A stretch of 64,000 bases of DNA from a virus (lineage: Duplodnaviria; Caudoviricetes), in the IMG/VR virus record IMGVR_UViG_2924263452_000001, positions 32,001 through 96,000 of that record. One strand, 5' to 3'. Of this stretch, positions 7,813-52,473 are shown piece after piece. The translations under genes and the position numbers were made by a program. Each line of letters opens with the position of its first letter. The stretch's first letter is position 1. The notes beneath the pieces are model-generated. The model had not been told where the DNA came from, searched no databases, and worked only from the letters and a program-made list of their open reading frames with translations.

Positions 7813-7976
7813 TTATTTCTTACTGGCTTTCTTTTTATTAACAACTATATAACCAAGTGCATATCCGTGAGTTCCGGCACACAATGTAGGGGAAAGCCCC
7901 CCCATGTTCTATAAATTGTTCCAGCTTGTGAATTACCAGTTGAAAGATTTCCAACTTTGAGCACCTTCTTATTCAT
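7813..7976 (-). CDS. C5-MTase target-recognition mini-module, frameshifted at G7 (7897-7903)
   Basis: MNKKVLKVGN...IYRTWG then GLSPTLCAGTHGYALGYIVV when one G is added. Confidence 0.6.
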
Positions 7977-8143
7977 GTTTTCTCCTGACGATTATTTTCG
8001 GCTGTCTTTGCCCCCCCCATCATCGTTGAAAGAGTAGGTGCTAATCCTTCTATAGAATAAATTCTTTTGATTATGTCAAGACCTTTTATATCTAATCGTC
8101 CTAATACCTTTATTTTTGGTTGTTGATTAATTGATTTCTTCAT
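7973..8143 (-). CDS. C5-MTase target-recognition mini-module, frameshifted at G8 (8011-8018)
   Basis: RIYSIEGLAPTLSTMMGG then QRQPKII when one G is removed. Confidence 0.6.
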   Translation of the reverse strand: MKKSINQQPKIKVLGRLDIKGLDIIKRIYSIEGLAPTLSTMMGGAKTAENNRQEKT

Positions 8144-8537
8144 ACAATCTATCCAATCCTTTTTCAAACGCTCCGATACCAGAGAAAAAGCTACTTACCT
8201 TTAAATCTTTGAAAAGATACGGCATTGCCTGATAAAGATTTTTATAAATGTGATACAGAACTCCCACACAAATAGAATTTCCTGCCTGCTTGTAGAGCTG
8301 TGTGTCTGACATTCCAGCTTCTTTGGCTTTATCAAAATCTTCATCTGAAAAATCCATCAATCTCCAACATTCTCTTGGTGTCAAACGGCGAATACCATAA
8401 TCTTCAATATTTACATCATTTTCCACAATCACTCTTTTATCTCCTCCTGCATTAATCGTCCGGATAGTGCCAAAAAGCCCCCCTTGAACGTTCTCATTCC
8501 TTCATCGCATCTTCGTTCACAAATATATCTGTTCATA
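8127..8537 (-). CDS. C5 cytosine MTase subunit: TRD + motifs IX, X + motif I (permuted), frameshifted at G6 (8478-8483)
   Basis: IRRLTPRECWRLMDF, LYKQAGNS, then FFSGIGAFE at the C-terminus; ATG at 8537 joins in frame with one extra G. Confidence 0.7.
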
Positions 8538-8671
8538 CTATTCCCTTCTGGTTGGTTTCTGTATAATCACCGCATTCATACTCTGTTTGCCAAATCCTTT
8601 ATAATCTCTTGCCATAAGTGTATTTGCACAATTGGTTATATGATTTACATGGTTTGCATAATCACTTACAA

Positions 8672-9488
8672 TTACTCCTTGACGATATTTTTCGTCTGTA
8701 TCAGATCCCACATGTGGCGATCTAATGAACAGCCCCCCCATGTCTGATTGTATGAGAATAGGATCTATACAGTTTTCCACTGTCAATCATTTCCTGTAAT
8801 GCCTTTTTCTCTTTGGCTGAATCAACGTAATATTTATCTGGCACGTTTTCTTCATTCTCAAGAATATCGTACATTGTTATGTCACTTTCAAACCCATCTG
8901 GAAGGTTGAAATTGCCGTTATCAAGTTCTTTTCTGATGATTACAAGATATAATCGTTCTCTGTTCTGTGGAATACCAAAATCTTTGGCATTCAGAACTTT
9001 CCAGTAAGTGTTATATCCATATTCGTGAAGCTCTTCGATAAACATATCGAATGTGTTTCTGAAAGATTTTCCTACAATATTTTTTACATTCTCATAAATT
9101 CCCCAGGCTGGCTTATTTGCTCGAACAACACGCAGCCATTCAACCAACAGAGAAGAACGTGTCTTATCAAGGTTTTCGCTCCCACAATTAGGACACTTAT
9201 CTCTTTTTGACCAATGAACTGTCAAAGGGTTATATGTAAATGGCTCTCCGTCATCACCTGTACAATCTTTACAAGTCCATCCACTACCAGCTTTCTTTCC
9301 AGCAATACTGAAATCTTGGCATGGCGATCCCCCACAAATCATATTGAATGGTAACATGCTGTTTTCATCAACTTTCGTAATATCTCCAATGTTAAGGTTT
9401 GGATCAACTCCATGAATAGCACAATATGAAGTTGCGGCAAACTTATCAACTTCGCAAAAATTTACCAGTTTCCAACTTTGAATTAATT
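8672..9488 (-). CDS. C5 cytosine MTase catalytic subunit (motifs II-VIII); start codon on an invertible segment; G7 switch at 8733-8739
   Basis: FCEVDKFA, GDITKV, GGSPCQDFS, YENVKN, PQNRERLY; no in-frame start upstream of WKLVNF in the current orientation. Confidence 0.8.
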
Positions 9489-9652
9489 TTTCATTGTAAA
9501 ACTATTGTAGAAAAGTGCTGATTTAGTGGCATTTATACTATATTTTGTATGCTATATGTATATGTTGACACTAAATATAGCGTTTATTGCCACTAAAAAT
9601 CAGGTAAAAGAGGTATAAAAATTGGAAAATAACGATAAAAAATTAATTTAAT
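9477..9652. mobile_element. Invertible segment A (OFF orientation) carrying RBS+TTG of the C5 MTase
   Basis: Sites TTTGAA-TTAATT-TTTCAT (9477-9494) and ATAAAA-AATTAA-TTTAAT (9635-9652); plus-strand AAGAGGT and TTG at 9622 become in frame after inversion. Confidence 0.75.
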
Positions 9653-9819
9653 CTATTTTTGCCACATTTCATTAATAACCATTGCAGCAGATATTCCAAG
9701 TAAAGCCCAAAACTTCGGGGTATTAGGCTTTGCGTCTGCTACTGTTGTAAGTGCCGCAAATAACACACCATATATCAGGCTTCCAATAATTGTTGTTTTC
9801 ATTTATTTATTTCATCTTT

Positions 9820-10062
9820 CTACAGCATTTCCGGATGTTCGTTGAACATCTGTAAGAATTTCTTTTCGTCATTTTTATTAGAACACCAAAGTTCCAACTC
9901 ATCGCCGTGTTCGCCCACAAGTGCTGCAATCGCTACATATTGTGTTAAAGTAGATTTGAGATTATACTTATCTCCATATACAGAAGTCAGTGTTACTTCA
10001 CCTTCGCACTCATTTACTACTTTTAAAAATGTTTCAACGTCTTTTACGTTTTTGATTTTCAT
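9820..10062 (-). CDS. Small HPr-like fold protein
   Basis: FLKVVNECEGEVTL...NLKSTL resembles small HPr-like Clostridial proteins. Confidence 0.5.
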   Translation of the reverse strand: MKIKNVKDVETFLKVVNECEGEVTLTSVYGDKYNLKSTLTQYVAIAALVGEHGDELELWCSNKNDEKKFLQMFNEHPEML

Positions 10063-10250
10063 TTACTTTTCCTTTCTTCTCTTTCAATTTCTGTCAATCT
10101 CTCTTGTGTTCCGCCAAATTCGTAACACTTACATGGTTCATTATCAACAGATACATCTTTTCCGTATTTCTTTCCGAAACATCTTCCAAGCCATTCTTTT
10201 CTACATAGTTGGCAGTTATGCTTATTTTGTTCTGGCGTAATATGCATCAT
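10059..10250 (-). CDS. Hypothetical Cys-containing protein
   Basis: AGGAGG RBS, overlapping junctions. Confidence 0.5.
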   Translation of the reverse strand: MMHITPEQNKHNCQLCRKEWLGRCFGKKYGKDVSVDNEPCKCYEFGGTQERLTEIEREERKSK

Positions 10251-10990
10251 TATCCTCCTATTAATTGGCTCTCATTTTCCTTCAATACAAGCTGACAAGC
10301 AATTCCGCAATCTTCCATGACTTCTAAATCCATACGCCCACGTTTAGGATCAAGTTTATCTAGGAACACTCCCTTAATGCAGCTATGCCCTATTTCCCTT
10401 TCCTGTCTTGCCCTACGTTCGAACACCTCTGGGAAATCTACTCTAATCTTATTCCAATATCCCATACCGCCTTTTACGCATCCAATACAGTTATTATTTG
10501 GATATCCAAGATCATACATAACTGGACGTTTTAATCCCAGTTCTTTTGCAAGTGCATGACAATCTTCTTTTGTGAATCCATTTTCGATTAACGGAAATTC
10601 ATGGTCGTAGTCTGTCATAGTATTTACCAATCTGTCAGCTCTACGCTTTTCATTTAAGTCATATCCCCATACATAAGTATGGTGGTCAAAGTTTTGTGCT
10701 TCCCATTTCTTTCTTACTTCTTTCTTCAAAAATTTTGTACAAGGTGCGCCATACGGAGTATTGATGCAACGTGTTTTTTCAATAACATCATCTACTGACG
10801 CATATCTTTCAGACTGTAATATGGTTATTTTTCTTCCTAATAATTTCTCGCAATCATGCAGAAAGCGTAAACTATCTGGATGCTGATTCGGAACGTGAGT
10901 ATAAATAAGCTCATCAATATCCTTTGATAAATAACATGCTACAAAACTTGAAATTCCTGTACTAAACCAACAAACTTTCACACCAGCCAC
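10250..10990 (-). CDS. PP-loop / PAPS-reductase-like protein, probably DNA modification
   Basis: CWFSTGISS PP-loop variant, APCTKFLK, GYPNNNCIGCVKGG. Confidence 0.7.
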   Translation of the reverse strand: MAGVKVCWFSTGISSFVACYLSKDIDELIYTHVPNQHPDSLRFLHDCEKLLGRKITILQSERYASVDDVIEKTRCINTPYGAPCTKFLKKEVRKKWEAQNFDHHTYVWGYDLNEKRRADRLVNTMTDYDHEFPLIENGFTKEDCHALAKELGLKRPVMYDLGYPNNNCIGCVKGGMGYWNKIRVDFPEVFERRARQEREIGHSCIKGVFLDKLDPKRGRMDLEVMEDCGIACQLVLKENESQLIGG

Positions 10991-11225
10991 TAACCGAATC
11001 CGGTGAATGGCAATTTTGTGGATTGCTATGTTTCGTACAAGCCTTACGTTTAGGTTTTACTTTACTTGTACTTTAGTTCAAACAAATTATGAACTGTTAG
11101 CCACGATCAGAAATTTTCCGGGCGTATATCTCTTTTCTCCAACACCCAACCTAGTTTCACTAGGATAAGGTGTTACTCCCTTCTTTTTTATTGTTATTTA
11201 TTTTATTCATCTTTTATTAAACCTT

Positions 11226-11950
11226 TCATCCCCACTGATCCGCCATTGCTTTGGCGATTCCTGGGAATGTTTTACTTCTTGCTTTTGCTCTCCCGGCTTG
11301 ACCACCAGTTGTATTTTTGATTCCCTCACACCAACCAATCCTTTTGCCTTTGCATTTTTTACCTTGGCAAATATATTGTGGCTCTGGAACTGGCAAATTA
11401 TTTTTTCTGTCAAGCACTGGAAGATTTTTAAGCCATAAACATGTTCTCTTCTGGAAATAATTCTCCGCATCATTCTTGTTACTAGCAAAATAATACGGAT
11501 GAACAATTTGATTTGGCTTTCTCCAATGTGTATTCATATACCCCACTGGATTTTCAATTGCAATTTTCTCACAATCTGCATTTGCTATTTTTAAGAAAAA
11601 TTGTTCTGCCTCATTTCTTTTTTCTATTCTAGCGGCTACTTTTTCTGGTGGATTACACTTTAATGAGTAATGCCGTGTTCCTGCAGATGTAAGATATGTA
11701 CATGGTGGAAATGCAATTATTATATCCCATTTCCCGTCTATCTTATGTTTGATTCCATCTGTTGTCTCGAACTCACAATTTCCGTTCAACAAAGGAATAA
11801 CATCTCCCATAACGTGCCATTCTGGATGATTACCAGAACATTCAATTATGTCACAGCTATATGCTTCATGTCCTTTATTTCTAAACTCAATACATACTCT
11901 TTGTGATTCTTCACACGCCACTAATATTTTTAATCTATGTTGAAAACAAC
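11226..11950 (-). CDS. Phage DNA cytosine methyltransferase-like protein; start codon on an invertible segment
   Basis: LVACEESQ, AFPPCTYL, IENPVG, RSKTFPGIAKAMADQWG; in-frame stop upstream and no RBS-linked start. Confidence 0.75.
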
Positions 11951-12095
11951 TTTCATTTTATAGTTTAAAAATACGATGGTTGTCGTATTAGAAATCAGAT
12001 ATGAAAGAGTTTCTTCCTATTATATATAGAAACAGAATTGTGAAAGGACGATTAGAACGTGAGTTCAGAGACAGTAGATAAAAGTTGTTTTTTAT
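11939..12095. mobile_element. Invertible segment B (OFF orientation)
   Basis: Sites GTTGAA-AACAAC-TTTCAT (11939-11956) and ATAAAA-GTTGTT-TTTTAT (12078-12095); plus-strand AAGGA and GTG at 12059 become in frame after inversion. Confidence 0.75.
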
Positions 12096-12637
12096 CCTAC
12101 TTCATGCTCTTTTAACCATTTCTTGAATACTTCTATATCCGGCTCCCAGAAATAACAATCTTCTGGTTTGCCGAAAACAACGCATGTAATTTTTCCATCA
12201 ATGATGCAATTTTCGTGATGTGAGCAGTTTTCACAACATTTTTTAAATCTGCATCTTGATTCAGTTGTCGGATAACGTTCTAAGAGATAGTCCAATTTAT
12301 TCAAATCCCTGTTTATCTCTTCAACTCTCCGCTTTATGATGTTTTGCTGCTGATCCAAAGTTCTTTTATGTAACTGCAAAACTTCATATTCTCTTGCTTC
12401 TTTTTCATCAAGAAATATTGAATTACCAAGCTCTACCAGCTTATGAGAAACATTTGTTTTAAATCCCCATACTCTTACATTTCCGAAAAATTCAACATTT
12501 CTAATTTTACAAGCTGTAACTCCTTGTCGTGGAAAAATATGAAATGCATCCATTCCAACAATTTCTTCGAGTGAATTTATATTATGTTTCTGTAAATATT
12601 CACATACTTTTTCATATCCACTACCAAGCTGGATCAT
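12092..12637 (-). CDS. Hypothetical protein
   Basis: AAGGAGG RBS. Confidence 0.55.
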   Translation of the reverse strand: MIQLGSGYEKVCEYLQKHNINSLEEIVGMDAFHIFPRQGVTACKIRNVEFFGNVRVWGFKTNVSHKLVELGNSIFLDEKEAREYEVLQLHKRTLDQQQNIIKRRVEEINRDLNKLDYLLERYPTTESRCRFKKCCENCSHHENCIIDGKITCVVFGKPEDCYFWEPDIEVFKKWLKEHEVG

Positions 12638-12647
12638 CTTTTCCTCC

Positions 12648-13007
12648 TTATAGATTGAGTTCTTCCAGTAATGGCAGAATCTTATCTTCCATTTCTGGGA
12701 ACAATTTATATAATGTTTGCCGGGCTGTCATAGGCTTATCTGGTTTCGTGAACCTACAGCACTCCCAGTCAATAATCATCTGAATATAATCCGCTTTTGT
12801 TCGCGCTCTTATAGGATGATGTCTGGAATATTTTCTGTGAAATTTAGAGACTTTTTTCTCCCAGCTTTTCGGAGTCACCAAATATATAAAAACTTTATCA
12901 AGGTCATGCAAAAATCCTCGAACAGTATTATGACCAAGCAATTCCTTTTCCACTCTGAGAAATGCTCTCTTATGTTTCATCGTATATACAATGTGACTTC
13001 TATTCAT
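12648..13007 (-). CDS. HD-like DUF5662-type protein
   Basis: KHK...LHDLDK...HRKYSRHH...MIIDW motifs. Confidence 0.6.
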   Translation of the reverse strand: MNRSHIVYTMKHKRAFLRVEKELLGHNTVRGFLHDLDKVFIYLVTPKSWEKKVSKFHRKYSRHHPIRARTKADYIQMIIDWECCRFTKPDKPMTARQTLYKLFPEMEDKILPLLEELNL

Positions 13008-13377
13008 TCTCAGCTTCTTCTCTTTTCATTCCAATAACTACTAATGCATTTTCAATCACTGCTTTAAATTCATCAAGATCAAGCATTGTTCTTCTCAGAT
13101 TTTCCTTCAAATCCAGGCTAGAATCCAACCAAGCAACAAGATATTCTGATAATCCAGTGGCAGAATAACCTTCCACTTCAAGATCATTGTCAATTGTAAT
13201 GGCTGCTTTATTATTGTTTACTGGATGAAGTAATCCGTCATAACCGACAATAATTTTATCTCCGGCTTTTATCTGCAGAGTATTTTCTTTGTTTACATAC
13301 TCTCTGTCGCGATTTGCCATCAGAATGCTTCCTCTTGATACTTTTAAAGCATCTGTAGTTCCATCAACACTTTTCAT
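13000..13377 (-). CDS. Hypothetical protein
   Basis: GAGG RBS. Confidence 0.5.
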   Translation of the reverse strand: MKSVDGTTDALKVSRGSILMANRDREYVNKENTLQIKAGDKIIVGYDGLLHPVNNNKAAITIDNDLEVEGYSATGLSEYLVAWLDSSLDLKENLRRTMLDLDEFKAVIENALVVIGMKREEAENE

Positions 13378-13729
13378 CTTTTACCTCTTTTTCGTTATTA
13401 AATTCTTCCTCTTGCGAGTCCATAGAAAGAACTTTTTGTGCATCTCTATGTTTCCAATTCACTGTAGAACCATAAAATCCACGATTGTTTGTACGTCGTC
13501 TGGCTTTTGAATGATAAATAGGGATTTTCCCTTTTATATATTGCCCGTCACATTTAACACGTAATCGCTTGCCATTCTTTGCGTCATTCACTCCAATGTC
13601 CGTTGCGGTACGTTTTTTCTTTCGTGCTTTAGAAAAATTTTTCTTTCTTCGCCATCCAATAGTTCTCTCCATAAGCTTTCTCCTATCTGATTTGCTATAC
13701 TTCGCGCATTCTTTGCACTGCCAAATCAT
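13364..13729 (-). CDS. Basic hypothetical protein (start probably MERTIGW)
   Basis: ORF with AGGAG upstream of an internal ATG. Confidence 0.45.
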   Translation of the reverse strand: MIWQCKECAKYSKSDRRKLMERTIGWRRKKNFSKARKKKRTATDIGVNDAKNGKRLRVKCDGQYIKGKIPIYHSKARRRTNNRGFYGSTVNWKHRDAQKVLSMDSQEEEFNNEKEVKDEKC

Positions 13730-13795
13730 AATATTTTTGTTTCAATTCAACACCAACATGTCATATTATATAATTTGTTGTATATTTATTTCTTT

Positions 13796-14649
13796 TTACT
13801 TGATATAATCAATTAACATCTCATCTTTGGCTTTTTGATAAAATGTTCGGTCAATTTCAAATCCGTATGAACTTCTTCCTAACTCACAAGCTGCTCTCAA
13901 TGTGCTTCCGCTTCCGCAACAAGGATCAATCACAACATCGCCAGGATCGGTAAATGTTTCAATCAGTCTCTTCAATAGTGCAACTGGTTTCTGTGCAGGG
14001 TGAATCTTTGGTATTTCTTTTGTATCTTTTTCCCATGTGAACCAGTTAAATATCATATGTCCAGTCCCTCTGATTGTTTTTCCGTTCTCATCATATTGTG
14101 CGCCATTACGGAATTTAGGAAGTCTGTCTCTATATAAAAGTAATGCATATTCTGTAGCCCCTACAACTCTCATATTTGCTTTCAACACCTGTGGGCTATA
14201 ATTCTTAACAAACACAAGTGGTATGTAATGAACAAATCCGTGTTTCGCTGCTGCATTAATAAGTGTCTGAATTTGTTCAAATGAACAAAACACGATCATA
14301 CAAGGTGAATCACTACTTCTCCCACGAATAGATTTCTTTTTATCCTCTTTCTTTAACATTTTTGAACAAAAATGGAAATATTCGTAGAGATTAAAGTTAA
14401 AATCTGAATTAAACGCCGACTTTCCAGCTAACTTGCTTTCTCCGTTTTTGTTATCTCCACCTTTATACCACATAGGATTTGAACCATAAAAATTATTTCC
14501 CACATTATACGGCACATCTGCTATAATAAGTTGTGCGGGACGAATACCATACTTTTTATAATTCTGCATTGAGTCACGAAAAATTTCACATTTTATTCTC
14601 GGCTCAATTGTCCCCCCGTGTAAGATTGATTAGTCTCAAGATTATTCAA
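13796..14649 (-). CDS. N6-adenine/N4-cytosine DNA methyltransferase (beta class), 5' end frameshifted at G6 (14612-14617)
   Basis: ADVPY, HPAQKP, DPCCGSGST; TTG at 14649 with GGAG RBS joins TIEPRIKCEIFRDSMQNY only with one extra G. Confidence 0.8.
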
Positions 14650-14735
14650 CTCTTTTTCTCCTTTGGTTGCATATTTATTTAGTTTATCTTATATATAAGA
14701 AATACTGACTGGGTTTTCCCACTCAGCTTTCTTAT

Positions 14736-14764
14736 ATAATATCATATTAAGTTGTATGTGTCAA
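14736..14764 (-). promoter_or_regulatory. SigA-type promoter upstream of the methyltransferase block
   Basis: TTGACA-17bp-TATTAT with extended -10 TG. Confidence 0.7.
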
Positions 14765-14781
14765 TATTTATTTCGTTTATC

Positions 14782-15396
14782 TTATGTGCAATAAATCTTA
14801 TTTAACTTTTCTATAATTGCTATTTCTTCCTGTCGCTTTTCTTCTTCAAATTCTTCTTTAAAGGAATCGCGCCACTTTTTCATCTCACCTGTATTTTCTG
14901 GATCAATCCATTGTGAGATAATCTTTGCAATGTCATCACCACATTTTTCCCGTACAATATCAATAACATGTCGTTTATTTCCTACGGTATCAATTTGCCC
15001 ATCTGGTAATTGTACTAAATCCATTTCTTCTTCCTTTTCACAGTTCTTCTTTAAATAATAACGTGTCGCGTCTTGTGGATTTTCAATACCATTGTAATTT
15101 TCTATAATATATTTTCCCTTAATGCCTCTCTTTGTTACTGGTACAATTTTATTGCAAAATAAATTATAATCTATCCCTTTTTGAATATATGACTCTGTTA
15201 ATGCCATTGATCTGCTAGTACAATTAACATTAAAGAATCTAATCGACGTTCCATCTGTTAATATAATTTTTAATTGATTTCTATAAATGCGGAATAAACA
15301 ATATCTTGGATAACTGTCTAAAATTTTTTCAAATAATAGTTTCGCCCATTTTATATCGTAATACCAAATACCGATATTTCTTGCGAAATTATTCAT
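14782..15396 (-). CDS. Hypothetical protein
   Basis: 204 aa ORF with RBS. Confidence 0.55.
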   Translation of the reverse strand: MNNFARNIGIWYYDIKWAKLLFEKILDSYPRYCLFRIYRNQLKIILTDGTSIRFFNVNCTSRSMALTESYIQKGIDYNLFCNKIVPVTKRGIKGKYIIENYNGIENPQDATRYYLKKNCEKEEEMDLVQLPDGQIDTVGNKRHVIDIVREKCGDDIAKIISQWIDPENTGEMKKWRDSFKEEFEEEKRQEEIAIIEKLNKIYCT

Positions 15397-15455
15397 CCTT
15401 TATACTTTCCTCCAATTGCCATATAAGTCATTTGGCTATAACTCTTATGTACAAT

Positions 15456-15752
15456 TTATTTTACAAACTCTGCTGTTCCATCTTTATAACTCTTTAGTTT
15501 CCAACCTTTGCTATTAAACCACTTTTGTTTATACCCATACCTTTTTATCCATTTTTTATTTATTCTCTTTTTCTTATGCTTTTTCGCTTGTACAGTTTTT
15601 AAATATTGGATAGTGTATGAATCTGGTTTTCCTGAAATATCCACACCAAAGATTTTCAATAATTTATCTATATTAATACCTTTATCTGGTTCTAATGTGA
15701 ATGAACTCTCAACCATATCGAACCTTTTTACACATTTTTCTTCCATTTGCAT
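15456..15752 (-). CDS. Hypothetical basic protein
   Basis: KKHKKKRINKKWIKRYGY motif. Confidence 0.5.
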   Translation of the reverse strand: MQMEEKCVKRFDMVESSFTLEPDKGINIDKLLKIFGVDISGKPDSYTIQYLKTVQAKKHKKKRINKKWIKRYGYKQKWFNSKGWKLKSYKDGTAEFVK

Positions 15753-15783
15753 AAATTATTTCTTTGTCACCTTTCAAAATATA

Positions 15784-16727
15784 TTACTCAACTTCTACCC
15801 CTATATAATCCATTACATGTCTTATTCCTAATCCGCCATTTTCAATAGGTTTCATACAATAATTCCAAAGTTTCGGATGCGTCTTTTTGAGCATTTGGAA
15901 ACGATTTGGTTCTTTTTCAAGATGACAACCAAACCCGCACCAGACGCAGCCACTTCTTCTCACTCCTGTTGTATGATATTTTCCATCTTCAAACACAATA
16001 TCACCATAAACTGAAGCATATGGAATTTTCTTAGTGTACAAATATTCAAGTACATCCTGCTCAGTCCAGAATCCCATAGGCTGACTCTGTGGACGTTTTT
16101 TATTAAAGGCGTTACATCCAGTTTTCATGTAGTCATTTTTCCTTTTATGACTTTCTTCTGCCATTAAGCCTAAAATTGGATGCTTACCTGTTTCTTTTTC
16201 ATACTCTAATGATGGTTTCTTTTTCATGATCGTACAACACTTATCAGAAATCAAGAAATCTGCATCAAGCAAATATTCATACTTCTTAAAATTATACTGA
16301 GTAGAAAGCTCGCCCGTTTTAGGATTTATGTACTCTCCGTGTAATTGCTGCCATCTGGTATTCCCAGGCTTCGCATAATGGACTTTGTTCGCCACCTCTT
16401 TGCTGATTACCGGATAGCCGTATTTTTGCACAACCTTTTTAAAATTTTCCTTTGGTCGTAGCCATGTGACATTATCAATAGTTTTTACAAATTCACGAAG
16501 TTCCGGATATTCTAAGCCAGTGTCAGTATATACAGCTTCAATGTCAGGATATATCTTTCTTGCTATATCAAGTAATACTGTACTGTCTTTACCACCGGAA
16601 AAAGCCACATAAACCTCTCCGCCATAAAACTCATACCATTCACGTATACGATTTTCAGTCTTTTTTATTTTCAGTTCAAGGGGAAGTGTCTGCAGTATCT
16701 TAAGACTTTCTTCCGTGTAAATTCTGT
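15784..16727 (-). CDS. PAPS-reductase family (PP-loop, Fe-S) protein; start codon on an invertible segment
   Basis: AFSGGKDS, DTGLEYPE, CCTIMKK, RSGCVWC; frame is open upstream of 16608 to a TAG with no start codon. Confidence 0.8.
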
Positions 16728-16872
16728 TTTTATTATGGACTCTGGAAAGCCTTAACTACGGCATTCCAGAATTGTACATAATAAACAAACAGTTAGTAAT
16801 ATAAGAACAATTATAAAAGGAATAGCATATTTATGGGAAAAATTGAAATAAACAATAAAAACAGAATTTTAT
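16716..16872. mobile_element. Invertible segment C (OFF orientation)
   Basis: Sites TGTAAA-TTCTGT-TTTTAT (16716-16733) and ATAAAA-ACAGAA-TTTTAT (16855-16872), with a 16-bp perfect inverted repeat; plus-strand AAGGA and ATG at 16833 become in frame after inversion. Confidence 0.8.
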
Positions 16873-16930
16873 TTAGTTTTAATATCTATATATTGTGTCT
16901 GTGATATTTTCAAGCACCATATATTGTGTG

Positions 16931-17164
16931 CTAATCTTTCCAAATAAAAGATCCTTGCACAACAGCTAATAATGCAAATATGAAATACAACAGTAAACAT
17001 TTTCCACATATTTCCAAAAATGCAATAATCGTAAATCCTTTTGTCATAATCAACGTGCAAGTTAAATATGCCGGGCATATAGTCATACAGCACGACATAG
17101 CAGCCAACAAAAGAATAAAAACGATAATCTGTATGTACCTAACATACTTTTTTATATATTTCAT
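16931..17164 (-). CDS. Small membrane protein
   Basis: Hydrophobic ORF abutting the PARP stop codon. Confidence 0.45.
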   Translation of the reverse strand: MKYIKKYVRYIQIIVFILLLAAMSCCMTICPAYLTCTLIMTKGFTIIAFLEICGKCLLLYFIFALLAVVQGSFIWKD

Positions 17165-18373
17165 TTATCTCAGCTCCACAAGATATTTTATAGTACATTG
17201 TTCTTCTTTATAAACAATAATCTCATCATTCCTTAACATCTTCCCAGCATGGGCGTGTAAGCAGTTTGCTCCGGGGCATTCTTTTTGTAATCGTTCATAA
17301 TTAAAGTTATAATATTTGCTATCAAATGAATGTACATCATATGGTTTTCCATATGCCACATCCATAAGTGCCATAAATCCGAAGTTTTCATGCTGTCCAC
17401 TCCAATATCCATCAAGGCTTGTATAGCCTTTTGACTTCTGAGCTTTTGGGGCATAGTACAGACCATATCCAAACATTTTTCCTGTTATTACGGCATTTGT
17501 TGGTCGAAGAACCAAACCAGTATTAATAATTGACCACCAATTCTCGTTCCTGCTGCCATGCCATAAAAGCTTTCGTGTCTTGATATTTTCTTTTTCTACA
17601 AAGTCGTCAAATCTCTTTTGTGTACGAATGTTGCGAACTCTCCAAGCTTTATGGAATCTGTTGCTGATTTCGCCCAACTTACCTTTAATCATTTCCACTT
17701 CTGAAGCATCAACTTCTTCAAAAATCAGCCCCATTGCTTCAATGATTGTTTCTTCATTATTTTCTTCTACTTTTTCTGGCTCGTTTTGAACAGTGTGTGT
17801 AACAACCTGACCTCTCATAACGTCAAGAAGATCCTGTTCATCTTTCAGAATTTTTGCGAAGTCATCTTTTCTTTTTGAAAGGTAATCATTCACGTTTCCC
17901 ATTTTTCGTGGGATTACAGTAAATAATGTAAGGAGCGTATTATTGAAATCTTCTACAGTTTCTTTGTTCATAAGATTATCAATGACATTTTGTGCCTCGT
18001 CCACCATAGCTTGTGTTACTTGCTGCGAAGATACTTTGTAATTTGCCTGGATTTTCTGACGTGCCATATCTTGTAGCCTTTGAACAATTTCAGCAATTAC
18101 TTTGTTTTCAATTTTTTTATAGCCATCATTAGATTTTACTGGTTCTTTCTGAATAAGATCCTGAACTAAGTGTGTCTGATCGACATAGCCTTTTTTGATT
18201 TTTTCTTTATACTTTTTATCCCACTGTGACATTGAGTAGGAAGCGTGCTGGCAAGTTGCACCAACACGTCCATATTCAACTTCAAAGATATCGCCATGTG
18301 GAATCATCTTATAATATTTGTTATTATTGTTTCTCGTTACCATAAGAAGGTAAACTGGCGATTTTTCTGACAT
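17165..18373 (-). CDS. PARP-like ADP-ribosyltransferase (WGR + regulatory + catalytic domains)
   Basis: NNNKYY..YGRVG (WGR), LLWHGSR, GKMFGYGLYYA, NDEIIVY; H-Y-E triad present. Confidence 0.9.
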   Translation of the reverse strand: MSEKSPVYLLMVTRNNNNKYYKMIPHGDIFEVEYGRVGATCQHASYSMSQWDKKYKEKIKKGYVDQTHLVQDLIQKEPVKSNDGYKKIENKVIAEIVQRLQDMARQKIQANYKVSSQQVTQAMVDEAQNVIDNLMNKETVEDFNNTLLTLFTVIPRKMGNVNDYLSKRKDDFAKILKDEQDLLDVMRGQVVTHTVQNEPEKVEENNEETIIEAMGLIFEEVDASEVEMIKGKLGEISNRFHKAWRVRNIRTQKRFDDFVEKENIKTRKLLWHGSRNENWWSIINTGLVLRPTNAVITGKMFGYGLYYAPKAQKSKGYTSLDGYWSGQHENFGFMALMDVAYGKPYDVHSFDSKYYNFNYERLQKECPGANCLHAHAGKMLRNDEIIVYKEEQCTIKYLVELR

Positions 18374-36262: not shown

Positions 36263-36359
36263 ATTGGTTTTCCTCCTAATTTTTCGAATCACTTTTAAAG
36301 TTATTAATTCCTATACATTATTACTTTTATCTTTGATGAAATGTATAAAAAATTAGAAT

Positions 36360-36478
36360 GTGCATGGCAAGACTTGAACTTGCGACTAATCCGATTCCCA
36401 TATCTATAGTTGCTGTTAAAGGCTTTCCACAAGTCTTATTATTCTTGTCAGATGCTCTCCCGACTGAGCTACATGCAC
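36360..36478 (-). ncRNA. tRNA-like RNA with anticodon loop replaced by a ~50-nt insert containing hairpin+ACAGCAA
   Basis: Acceptor GTGCATG/CATGCAC, D arm GCTC..GAGC, T arm GCAAG-TTCAAGT-CTTGC. Confidence 0.75.
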
Positions 36479-36486
36479 ATTTTTAC

Positions 36487-36545
36487 AAGACACGTTTTTT
36501 CTTTACCTACGCACAATAATTTGATTCTTTGCTGTTTTGTGTCTT
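36487..36545 (-). ncRNA. Stand-alone helix+ACAGCAA motif RNA
   Basis: AAGACAC-AAAACAGCAA...GUGUCUU. Confidence 0.6.
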
Positions 36546-36551
36546 TAATAG

Positions 36552-36625
36552 TGGAATGTATGGGACTCGAACCCATGACCATCCGCTTATGAGGCGGACG
36601 CTCTAACCAACTGAGCTAACATTCC
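36552..36625 (-). tRNA. tRNA with CAT anticodon (Met or Ile2), CCA not encoded
   Basis: Canonical cloverleaf; anticodon arm TCCGC-CTCATAA-GCGGA. Confidence 0.9.
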
Positions 36626-36630
36626 TAAAA

Positions 36631-36778
36631 GGCAAGTGTGATTAAATCATGTAAAATCTATACCCTGCATTTTTGATTTTCTTCAAACTGTTATATTTTA
36701 AGTTTGCTGTATGTGTCTAAATACTAGACACCGTTCATAATTTTTTATTGATATATGTATATTGTTTTACCACTTGCC
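36631..36778 (-). ncRNA. Degenerate tRNA-like RNA carrying the motif
   Basis: Terminal stem GGCAAGTG/CACTTGCC enclosing GTGTCTA-GTATT-TAGACAC-ATACAGCAA. Confidence 0.55.
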
Positions 36779-36781
36779 TAA

Positions 36782-36848
36782 GCGAATAATAGGACTCGAA
36801 CCTATGCTCAACATTAATTGTCAGCTCTACCAACTGAGCTATATTCGC
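36782..36848 (-). ncRNA. 67-nt tRNA-like RNA with a shrunken anticodon arm
   Basis: Acceptor GCGAATA/TATTCGC with canonical D and T arms; no canonical anticodon arm. Confidence 0.7.
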
Positions 36849-52239: not shown

Positions 52240-52473
52240 CTAAAATAAATTTCCTTGACTGTCTACCAGTCCTTCATATCCGCACCATTTACATCTGCAA
52301 TGCAATGACGCTCCATCAAAACCAGTTGTTTCATAATCTTTCATGTGACAATGCCAGCCTCTCTTGCAATAAATCTTTTGTAACGGTTTTACATGATTTG
52401 CTATGGCATATCCAATCCCGTCAAGAATAATAAGTGACATTAAAATTACACCTACAAATAAACCAATACTCAC
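52240..52473 (-). CDS. Small membrane protein with Cys/His motif
   Basis: TM segment and C..GWH...CKWC. Confidence 0.5.
   Translation of the reverse strand: MSIGLFVGVILMSLIILDGIGYAIANHVKPLQKIYCKRGWHCHMKDYETTGFDGASLHCRCKWCGYEGLVDSQGNLF

Follow-up and report, generated by a model that had tools for sequence, protein, structure and literature searches.

The phage DNA examined here, a stretch of 64,000 nucleotides termed the window, corresponds to positions 32001-96000 of the IMG/VR record IMGVR_UViG_2924263452_000001 (hereafter G000), and it carries three invertible segments, designated inv1, inv2 and inv3, each placed in front of a DNA-modification gene whose reading frame is start-less in the orientation present. 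All three segments flip in nature, each provides its gene with a ribosome-binding site, a start codon and the opening codons when ON, and the switches are mutually independent. They are best understood, with a probability of roughly 85%, as programmed DNA-inversion switches, in which a recombinase flips the translation starts of phage DNA-modification genes. Together with inv4, inv5 and inv6, located just left of the window, six switches were recognized, all of them at DNA-modification genes, namely five methyltransferase genes and one PAPS-reductase-like gene. An earlier note on this DNA had described three such switches, all OFF; the three in the window are real and OFF, but the genome total is six, and inv6, outside the window, is ON. 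Positions given below are those of the window unless a record is named.

The first switch, inv1, precedes gene 1 (8127-9501, minus strand), which encodes a C5 cytosine methyltransferase that matches Pfam PF00145 DNA_methylase with an E-value of 8e-44. Its gene-side site (9477-9494; ATGAAA-AATTAA-TTCAAA on the minus strand) falls in codons 7-12 of the ON-form methylase, and its upstream site (9635-9652; ATAAAA-AATTAA-TTTAAT) adjoins the stop of a preceding 49-aa gene (9653-9802). Between them lies the invertible segment (9495-9634), which is OFF and carries the sequence AAGAGG (9608-9613), a TTG (9622-9624) and the first codons on the plus strand.

The second switch, inv2, is arranged in the same manner at gene 2 (11226-11945, minus strand), a DNA methyltransferase-like gene with PPC and ENP motifs, which matches PHROG 757 'DNA methyltransferase' at an E-value of 3e-57 and has no Pfam or NCBIfam match. 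The segment (11957-12077, OFF; AAAGGA at 12043-12048 and GTG at 12059-12061 on the plus strand) is bounded by a gene-side site at 11939-11956 (minus-strand ATGAAA-GTTGTT-TTCAAC) and an upstream site at 12078-12095 (ATAAAA-GTTGTT-TTTTAT), which overlaps the stop codon of the preceding gene (12092-12637). In the window orientation, gene 2 is start-less except for a GTG at 11921 that lacks a ribosome-binding site.

The third switch, inv3, serves gene 3 (15784-16722, minus strand), which is likewise start-less here and encodes a PAPS-reductase-like PP-loop protein with the motif SGGKDS, matching Pfam PF01507 PAPS_reduct (E 7e-20, 72 bits against a cut-off of 22.5) and PHROG 424; from its context, the protein would take part in DNA modification. 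The gene-side site (16716-16733; minus-strand ATAAAA-ACAGAA-TTTACA) and the upstream site (16855-16872; ATAAAA-ACAGAA-TTTTAT), the latter overlapping the stop of a preceding small gene (16869-17093), enclose a segment at 16734-16854 that is OFF, with AAAGGA at 16816-16821 and ATG at 16833-16835 on the plus strand and a hairpin at 16742-16769. The identities that the note had assigned to the three genes agree with these family matches.

In all three cases the start codons on the plus strand point away from the genes, and in-silico flipping at the core yields in-frame N-termini for genes 1, 2 and 3. The claim that each segment holds a ribosome-binding site and an opposite-strand start was thereby reproduced, with a Shine-Dalgarno-like motif in each segment, with TTG, GTG and ATG as the starts and with the same N-termini. 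Because each upstream site touches or overlaps the stop codon of the gene before it, the invertible segment constitutes the entire intergenic spacer, and the switch must work at the translation start. No homology beyond the arms was found when the segments of inv1, inv2 and inv3 were compared, and no intron or structured RNA was recognized in them by Rfam, whether the gathering threshold or a limit of E<=1 was applied; the single exception, elsewhere, was at chance level. Stop-codon recoding was also considered as the cause of the start-less frames and was rejected, since the upstream frames end at a mixture of TAA, TAG and TGA, which indicates that the genome is not recoded.

Flipped forms were encountered repeatedly among related genomes, loci and public assemblies. 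The inv1 segment is reversed in loci L002-L004, L011 (from genome G001) and L022 (G012) at 95-99% identity with collinear flanks, and it is oriented as in the window in L005-L008. In L002-L004, which are contigs encoding ON forms, the segment matches in reverse at 97% and both flanks match forward. Moreover, public contigs of runs X1 and X2 aligned to the window contain an opposite-strand joint at 9492/9638 with 11 letters shared. At the protein level, the predicted ON N-terminus MENNDKKLIQSWE opens P0001, P0002 and P0004, whose identity to gene 1 is 90-93%; other database homologs begin at a makeshift start just within the gene.

The inv2 segment is reversed with collinear flanks in L006, L011 (G001) and L012 (G002), and that of L006 is reversed relative to L005 and L008. 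Loci L005 and L006 come from different samples and are 99.97% identical, differing over 13.4 kb by 3 mismatches and 1 gap, but have inv2 in opposite orientations. In L006, gene 2 gives a 246-aa ON product that is called 18 codons longer and has the N-terminus (GTG)SSEAVDKSCFQN, as predicted.

For inv3, a contig of run X3 joins 16853 on the plus strand to 16734 on the minus strand with 16 letters shared, which represents its ON form. The segment is oriented as in the window in G001, G003, G012 and L005. A deletion of 15801-16816, which removes gene 3, the gene-side site and half of the inv3 segment and leaves a lone upstream site, is found in many relatives (L002, G002, G007, G008, G013 and run X5) and occurs as a minor form in run X2. 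Upstream of inv3, a 296-bp stretch with small membrane-protein open reading frames (16878-17175) is absent from the X2 and X3 contigs.

When G000 was compared with seven relatives at 95-97% identity, local inversion was found at inv1, inv2, inv4, inv5 and inv6 only, and the seven relatives present seven distinct state vectors; inv3 is either in the window orientation or deleted in these seven, and its flipped form was seen only in run X3. All four combinations of inv1 and inv2 states are present among the relatives, including 13 IMG/VR loci, in keeping with the claim of the note that the genes are toggled independently. No large inversion or deletion between different site pairs was detected in any genome compared. 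Relatives in the ON state, which the note had suggested looking for, therefore exist for inv1 and inv2 among the loci and for inv3 in run X3, and proteins called on relatives carry the predicted ON N-termini of genes 1 and 2; the refuting condition set by the note was not borne out.

The crossovers could be placed precisely by side-by-side comparison of the junctions. They lie inside the identical stretch of each pair, which amounts to 11 bp at inv1 (9481-9491), 11 bp at inv2 and 16 bp at inv3; the overlaps of the joints (16 letters for inv3, 11 letters for inv1) equal the repeat length, and the single variable arm base moves along with the inverted segment. Inverted-repeat bounds, both orientations in nature, breakpoints within the repeats and unchanged flanks, which are marks of an inverton, were thus observed. 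An assembly artefact was rejected, because assemblers use k-mers longer than these repeats of 11-16 bp and the same flips turn up in assemblies made independently (IMG/VR, ENA and Logan).

The sites themselves follow a common design. The three inverted-site pairs that the note had placed were recovered as inverted repeats at 9478-9497/9632-9651 (20 nt, 85% identity), 11943-11956/12078-12091 (14 nt, 93%) and 16719-16734/16854-16869 (16 nt, 100%), with core-to-core offsets of 158, 139 and 139 bp for inv1, inv2 and inv3, respectively. The cores AATTAA, GTTGTT and ACAGAA are the same within a pair and different between pairs, again as had been claimed. Read on the gene strand, the gene-side sites consist of ATRAAA, the 6-bp core and TT, and the upstream sites of ATAAAA, the core of the partner and TTTTAT or TTTAAT. 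The site formula of the note was consequently upheld in part: ATRAAA-N6-TT fits six of six window sites, but the full palindromic form ATRAAA-N6-TTTYAT fits only two of the six. The gene-side outer arms are degenerate (TTCAAA, TTCAAC and TTTACA) and lie within coding sequence, and one upstream site ends in TTTAAT.

Two scans of the 127-kb record were performed on this basis. A strict scan for ATRAAA-N6-TT sites with an inverted same-core partner within 3 kb returned four pairs, against none in 100 second-order Markov simulations. A preliminary rule demanding invariant AAA-N6-TTT on both partners recovered merely two of six pairs and was replaced by a scored arm model, which accepts ATNAAA/TTTNAT arms at 16 or more of 20 positions, an identical inverted core and a spacing of 60-1000 bp. 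The scored model gives six pairs in G000, which are exactly the six flipping loci, where about 1.1 would be expected by chance on average. The consensus ATNAAA-N6-TTTNAT holds at 12 of the 12 sites of the six verified switches, and all their cores are non-palindromic and specific to their pair, so the layout of a tyrosine-recombinase core site, with inverted arms around an identical asymmetric core, is present. At inv1, the core TTAATT/AATTAA of the window is replaced by TAATTT/AAATTA on both partners in the L005 clade, with no change in the arms. Every core is confined to its pair in the clade of the window, and the several sites with one core that define a shufflon are not seen there.

The three further switches, which answer the suggestion of the note that more site pairs be sought, were also revealed by a BLAST comparison of the whole record with G001, in which five short stretches (inv1, inv2 and three more) are reversed and the remainder is collinear. 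They are located at 22.5, 24.4 and 26.5 kb of the record, or about -9515 to -5018 in window terms, and each is flipped in some relatives. A third C5-type methylase receives its ribosome-binding site, its ATG and 33 codons, among them those of motif I, from the inv6 segment (G000:C1:22485-22671, 187 bp); inv6 is ON in G000 and OFF in G001. The inv5 segment (G000:C1:26504-26982, 479 bp), which is OFF here, holds the initial 146 codons of the gene for an NPPF adenine methylase. The inv4 segment (G000:C1:24364-24498, 135 bp) is directly upstream of a DPPY N6/N4 methylase gene; by analogy, from the orientation of a hairpin motif, it would be OFF in G000 and ON in G001.

This hairpin motif, with the stem ACGA/TCG and the loop TGGTTG, is common to the inv2 and inv4 segments; the inv2 copy is the hairpin ATACGA-TGGTTG-TCGTAT at 11973-11992. 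G001 has the motif at 52317, 52473, 132328 and 149796; a G-rich stretch of non-coding DNA around 52.3 kb accounts for two copies, which are fixed and on the sense strand. The motif may mark the 5' end of a transcript or be linked to a promoter.

Tyrosine recombinases place two monomers on the inverted arms of each site and cleave in a staggered manner across an overlap of 6-8 bp, and strand swapping requires identical overlaps; an asymmetric overlap sets the polarity, so that inverted sites yield inversion. Each window switch is a spacer of 120-140 bp between co-oriented genes, flanked by two inverted 18-bp sites, each of which consists of two short ATNAAA arms, read inward from either side, around a 6-bp asymmetric core. 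A ribosome-binding site, a start codon and the gene's initial 9-11 codons come from the segment, and its reverse orientation leaves the frame start-less. In the mechanism proposed here, flipping is most likely the work of a phage tyrosine recombinase that recognizes the shared arms and swaps strands over the core. One enzyme would presumably serve all pairs, with the differing cores preventing cross-reaction: as core identity is needed and no two pairs have a core in common, each switch flips alone and different switches do not recombine. Six switches allow up to 64 combinations, and flipping would be reversible within a lineage. The purpose may be bet-hedging of phage DNA modification against two kinds of host, those restricting DNA that is unmodified and those restricting DNA that is modified.

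Several observations weigh against this interpretation. Within the assembled contigs of any one run, each switch appears in a single orientation with no mixture, and the compared genomes are 3-5% diverged, except for the L005/L006 pair. Arms of 6 bp are short and atypical for a tyrosine recombinase, and the table of half-sites is partly circular, as the arm model had been used to choose the sites. The candidate recombinase genes lie 45-120 kb away from the switches, and a second recombinase of 345 aa co-occurs with them equally well and is better conserved in one relative, G026. A sigma-70 promoter scan gave 29 sites against 36 expected, none of them convincing on the start-codon strand of the segments, to which no promoter could be assigned. 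The gene downstream of inv4 has an AGGAG and an ATG of its own, both beyond the segment, and inv4 must accordingly act differently, probably on transcription. Gene 1 is spread over three frames in this genome, and the methylases are predicted as such from sequence.

As to the enzyme, the search for a recombinase, which the note had recommended, led to a catalytically intact tyrosine recombinase of 240 aa, encoded by an open reading frame at G000:C1:97242-97964, 1.2 kb beyond the end of the window, which is the sole tyrosine recombinase in G000. The protein matches PF00589 (E 7e-17) and is essentially the catalytic domain alone. In an alignment with XerA (5hxy), LRAGD, HSLR, NH and RY fall at the catalytic R, H-x-x-R, H and Y, and the catalytic residues of a tyrosine recombinase are complete. 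Its scores fall well short of the cut-offs set for Xer and Fim-invertase models, as exemplified by the NCBIfam models PRK09870/PRK09871 (FimB/FimE), where 23.9/21.3 bits were obtained against cut-offs of 221/222. Orthologs are present in the 14 inverton-bearing records that are long enough, with 92-98% identity in clade A and 64-65% in clade B; at nine loci with zero site pairs, matches reach 28-33% identity or are missing, as is the case in G011. The 240-aa protein is the somewhat favoured candidate for the invertase; the weight that is left after it and the 345-aa enzyme is carried by the two tyrosine recombinases acting together or by a host enzyme.

The strongest competitor, which must be rated as possible but clearly less probable, is the 345-aa protein just mentioned, a two-domain Xer-like tyrosine recombinase (G001:28224-29258) that would act alone or as a heteromer with the 240-aa protein and whose gene is located in a genome part missing from G000. 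It occurs in the complete or near-complete inverton-bearing genomes of both clades (100% identity in G001, 78% in G014/G019), and genomes without site pairs lack it or have matches below 31% identity. Site pairs with the arms described above also occur in G026, where the 345-aa protein is 50% identical and the best match of the 240-aa protein reaches 35%. Furthermore, it possesses an N-terminal SAM-like core-binding domain, typical of simple-site recombinases. This candidate is weakened by G010, which does not encode the 345-aa enzyme yet has two candidate switches of the same design with AAGAAA arms, as well as a diverged small-recombinase-like gene at the syntenic position. In addition, about six conserved arm bases suit a FimB-sized, catalytic-only enzyme better than a reader of 11-13 bp arms, and the 345-aa gene sits within an opposite-strand gene block, where it resembles an integration or resolution module.

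With regard to function, a fuller picture is slightly favoured, in which the phage would operate a multi-bit register: one small tyrosine recombinase, shared arms and pair-specific cores would yield bursts of epigenetically mixed virions; together with poly-G tracts in a multispecific methylase, the register would be the viral counterpart of a phasevarion and a bet-hedging device against modification-sensitive and modification-dependent restriction; and the same design with co-diverged arms would recur in at least two to three related phage clades. The poly-G component concerns gene 1. Its frame 9501-8722 contains motifs II-VIII, including GSPCQ, ENV and QNRER, its target-recognition parts are in frame 8786-8538, and frame 8501-8127, with RRLTPRE and GNS, holds motifs IX and X followed by S-adenosylmethionine (AdoMet) motif I (FSGIG), so that the motif set of a C5 cytosine methyltransferase is found in full, though frame-split in this genome. 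The relative P0115 has 429 aa in a single frame with an equal motif order and motif I at the C-end. This order, together with the downstream position of motif I in the stop-to-stop frames, indicates that the family is circularly permuted and that the short N-terminus is normal. A G7 tract (8733-8739) is situated at the first frame change of gene 1 (locus 7813-9501, minus strand), and after a shared HGG the relatives continue in all three frames, which suggests that slipped-strand phase variation of target-recognition modules may be added to the inversion switch.

The switches might have a main role other than escape from restriction, either limiting the cost or toxicity of the enzymes or, in a lysogen, acting as a phasevarion that alters the methylome and expression of the host; this is a tentative alternative with a minor share of the probability. 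Some relatives (G006, G023 and G027) are classed as proviruses, so the phage may be temperate, and the frequent deletion of the PAPS-reductase gene suggests a cost. Bacterial phase-variable methylases are known to regulate genes (PMC9881135; 10.1101/2025.01.11.632565). On the other hand, six modification genes with their own bit, in combination with poly-G tracts, look more like a diversified protective pattern than like regulation.

Accidental inversion at chance short repeats, by template switching or homologous recombination and with later fixation as strain polymorphisms, is very unlikely as an alternative to programmed switching. The AT-rich record does offer 115 pairs of 10-12 bp inverted repeats within 600 bp, and the strain divergence and uniform contigs mentioned above would be compatible with fixed polymorphisms. 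Nevertheless, flipping is limited to the pairs with ATNAAA arms among the 115; six of six switches are at the 5' ends of DNA-modification genes, and five of the six carry exactly a ribosome-binding site and a start. The arms are conserved and the locus-specific cores covary within pairs between clades, the near-identical L005 and L006 differ by a flip, and the recombinase-free relative G011 has no site pairs and an ordinary start.

The least credible agent is a large serine recombinase (573-aa frame, G000:C1 about 1631-2074, at the left end), which is the only other recombinase in the 127-kb record but is excluded as the invertase by the complete genome G001, where six switches, five of them flipped relative to G000, occur with no Resolvase-family (PF00239) match and to which the first 2.1 kb of G000, where the serine recombinase gene is located, do not align, quite apart from the 2-bp crossover in long sites, rather than 6-bp arms around a 6-bp core, that such enzymes are established to use. 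Small serine recombinases of the Hin/Gin/Cin type were also missing, given that G001 has no PF00239 match and G000 only that of the large enzyme.

Switches of the same kind are also seen in related phages. In a second clade (L104-L118), whose methylase is about 75% identical, the same arms surround other cores, with 5-7 pairs per 21-kb locus, and four predicted switches were seen flipped among relatives. At about 4690-5650 of L104, L105 and L106, three same-core sites lie at the 3' part of a PARP-like ADP-ribosyltransferase gene and at the start of a PAPS-reductase gene, and a 723-bp inversion between two of the three splits the PARP gene in L106. Such recombination among three same-core sites is what the core-identity rule predicts, and the sequences suggest that this set may be a shufflon-like switch. 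The more distant 154-kb phage G010 (L020, L144) has its two candidate switches with variant AAGAAA arms at G010:C1:96174-96328 and 111023-111181, the former at a methylase start and the latter at a PAPS-reductase gene that lacks a start and is read in frame after flipping; neither was seen in a flipped copy. In G011 (98% complete), the scored model finds zero site pairs, and its methylase ortholog starts in the ordinary way at AGGAGG-TTG, preceded by a terminator-like hairpin.

Comparable systems are known mainly from bacteria. At fimS of Escherichia coli, the small catalytic-only tyrosine recombinases FimB and FimE flip a short segment between short inverted repeats; unlike the phage switches, fimS is a single locus with the promoter within the segment and the recombinase genes adjacent. 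Engineered lox and FRT sites with heterospecific spacers have common arms and different spacers and recombine only with their own partner. These variants are man-made, and the phage sites would be a natural use of that logic with much shorter arms.

In Clostridioides difficile, the tyrosine recombinase RecV acts in trans on several scattered short segments with different repeats, such as those of cwpV and flgB (PMC5903667). The RecV switches resemble those described here in being ON/OFF elements upstream of genes with no adjoining recombinase gene, and they belong to a gut Firmicute host. However, they are bacterial and serve surface and motility genes, on whose 5' leaders they act by way of transcription or termination, whereas the present segments belong to a phage, contain the translation start and first codons, target DNA modification and combine arms common to all sites with cores peculiar to each pair. 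In phages, Mu Gin/G and P1 Cin/C (mentioned in PMC5903667) likewise diversify the progeny by site-specific inversion with an enzyme encoded by the phage; these are small serine invertases that turn one large segment and change tail-fibre C-termini and host range, in contrast with six short segments at modification genes. Mpi of Bacteroides fragilis is one invertase for at least 13 independently flipping switches (PMC5903667), which similarly generates combinatorial states, but it is a serine recombinase that acts on one repeat consensus at capsule promoter invertons in a bacterial host.

The type I hsdS 'epigenetic invertons' change the methylation pattern by DNA inversion (PMC7672463), yet they shuffle the specificity domains of one host defence system, while whole orphan phage genes are turned ON and OFF here. 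Bacterial partial intergenic invertons have one repeat in a gene and one outside (Chanin et al., bioRxiv 10.1101/2023.03.11.532203), and most of them are long shufflon-like elements, unlike the short start cassettes of the phage. In the literature on phage or viral invertons and invertible phage methylases, only a 2026 methods paper was retrieved, which lists 16 unannotated candidate invertons on viral contigs (PMC13501310); the word methyltransferase is absent from it and no multi-locus system is described. None of the compared systems unites a phage genome, many loci, translation-start cassettes and DNA-modification targets.

Bacterial inversion switches, master invertases, phase-variable methylases and phage tail-fibre inversions were thus already familiar, and in the literature searched there is no description of a phage that phase-varies its own DNA-modification repertoire gene by gene. 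If the proposed function is true, it would account for the ability of a single phage lineage to meet contrary modification demands from its hosts, and it would add an extra layer to the arms race between phages and restriction. A single reference genome may then be 'off', which would skew readings of phage methylomes and host range; OFF-state references lead to mis-called or truncated genes, as in many of the database entries met here. The sites would also constitute a compact natural toolkit of orthogonal recombination sites.

The carrier is a large phage (about 170 kb), probably of gut bacteria. G000 measures 127,362 bp and is about 75% complete, and its nearest complete relative is G001 (170,884 bp, 100% complete). 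The window has 34% G+C, and its minus strand bears essentially all genes. The public runs that contain the stretch, among which no RNA run is listed, are metagenomes from gut (mostly pig), wastewater and a bioreactor, and one homolog carries an annotation from a metagenome-assembled genome of Lachnospiraceae. No near-identical phage was matched in the GenBank phage collection. Two further features of the window were recorded. The region 36359-36848 (minus strand) gives three Rfam tRNA matches, one of them of 120 nt, and ARAGORN calls one tRNA (Met). A second PAPS-reductase-like gene (10250-10990) is preceded by a 236-nt non-coding leader (10991-11225, minus strand), for which an Rfam search returned no match; the leader folds more stably than its shuffles (z -2.9), and the gap is kept in relatives.

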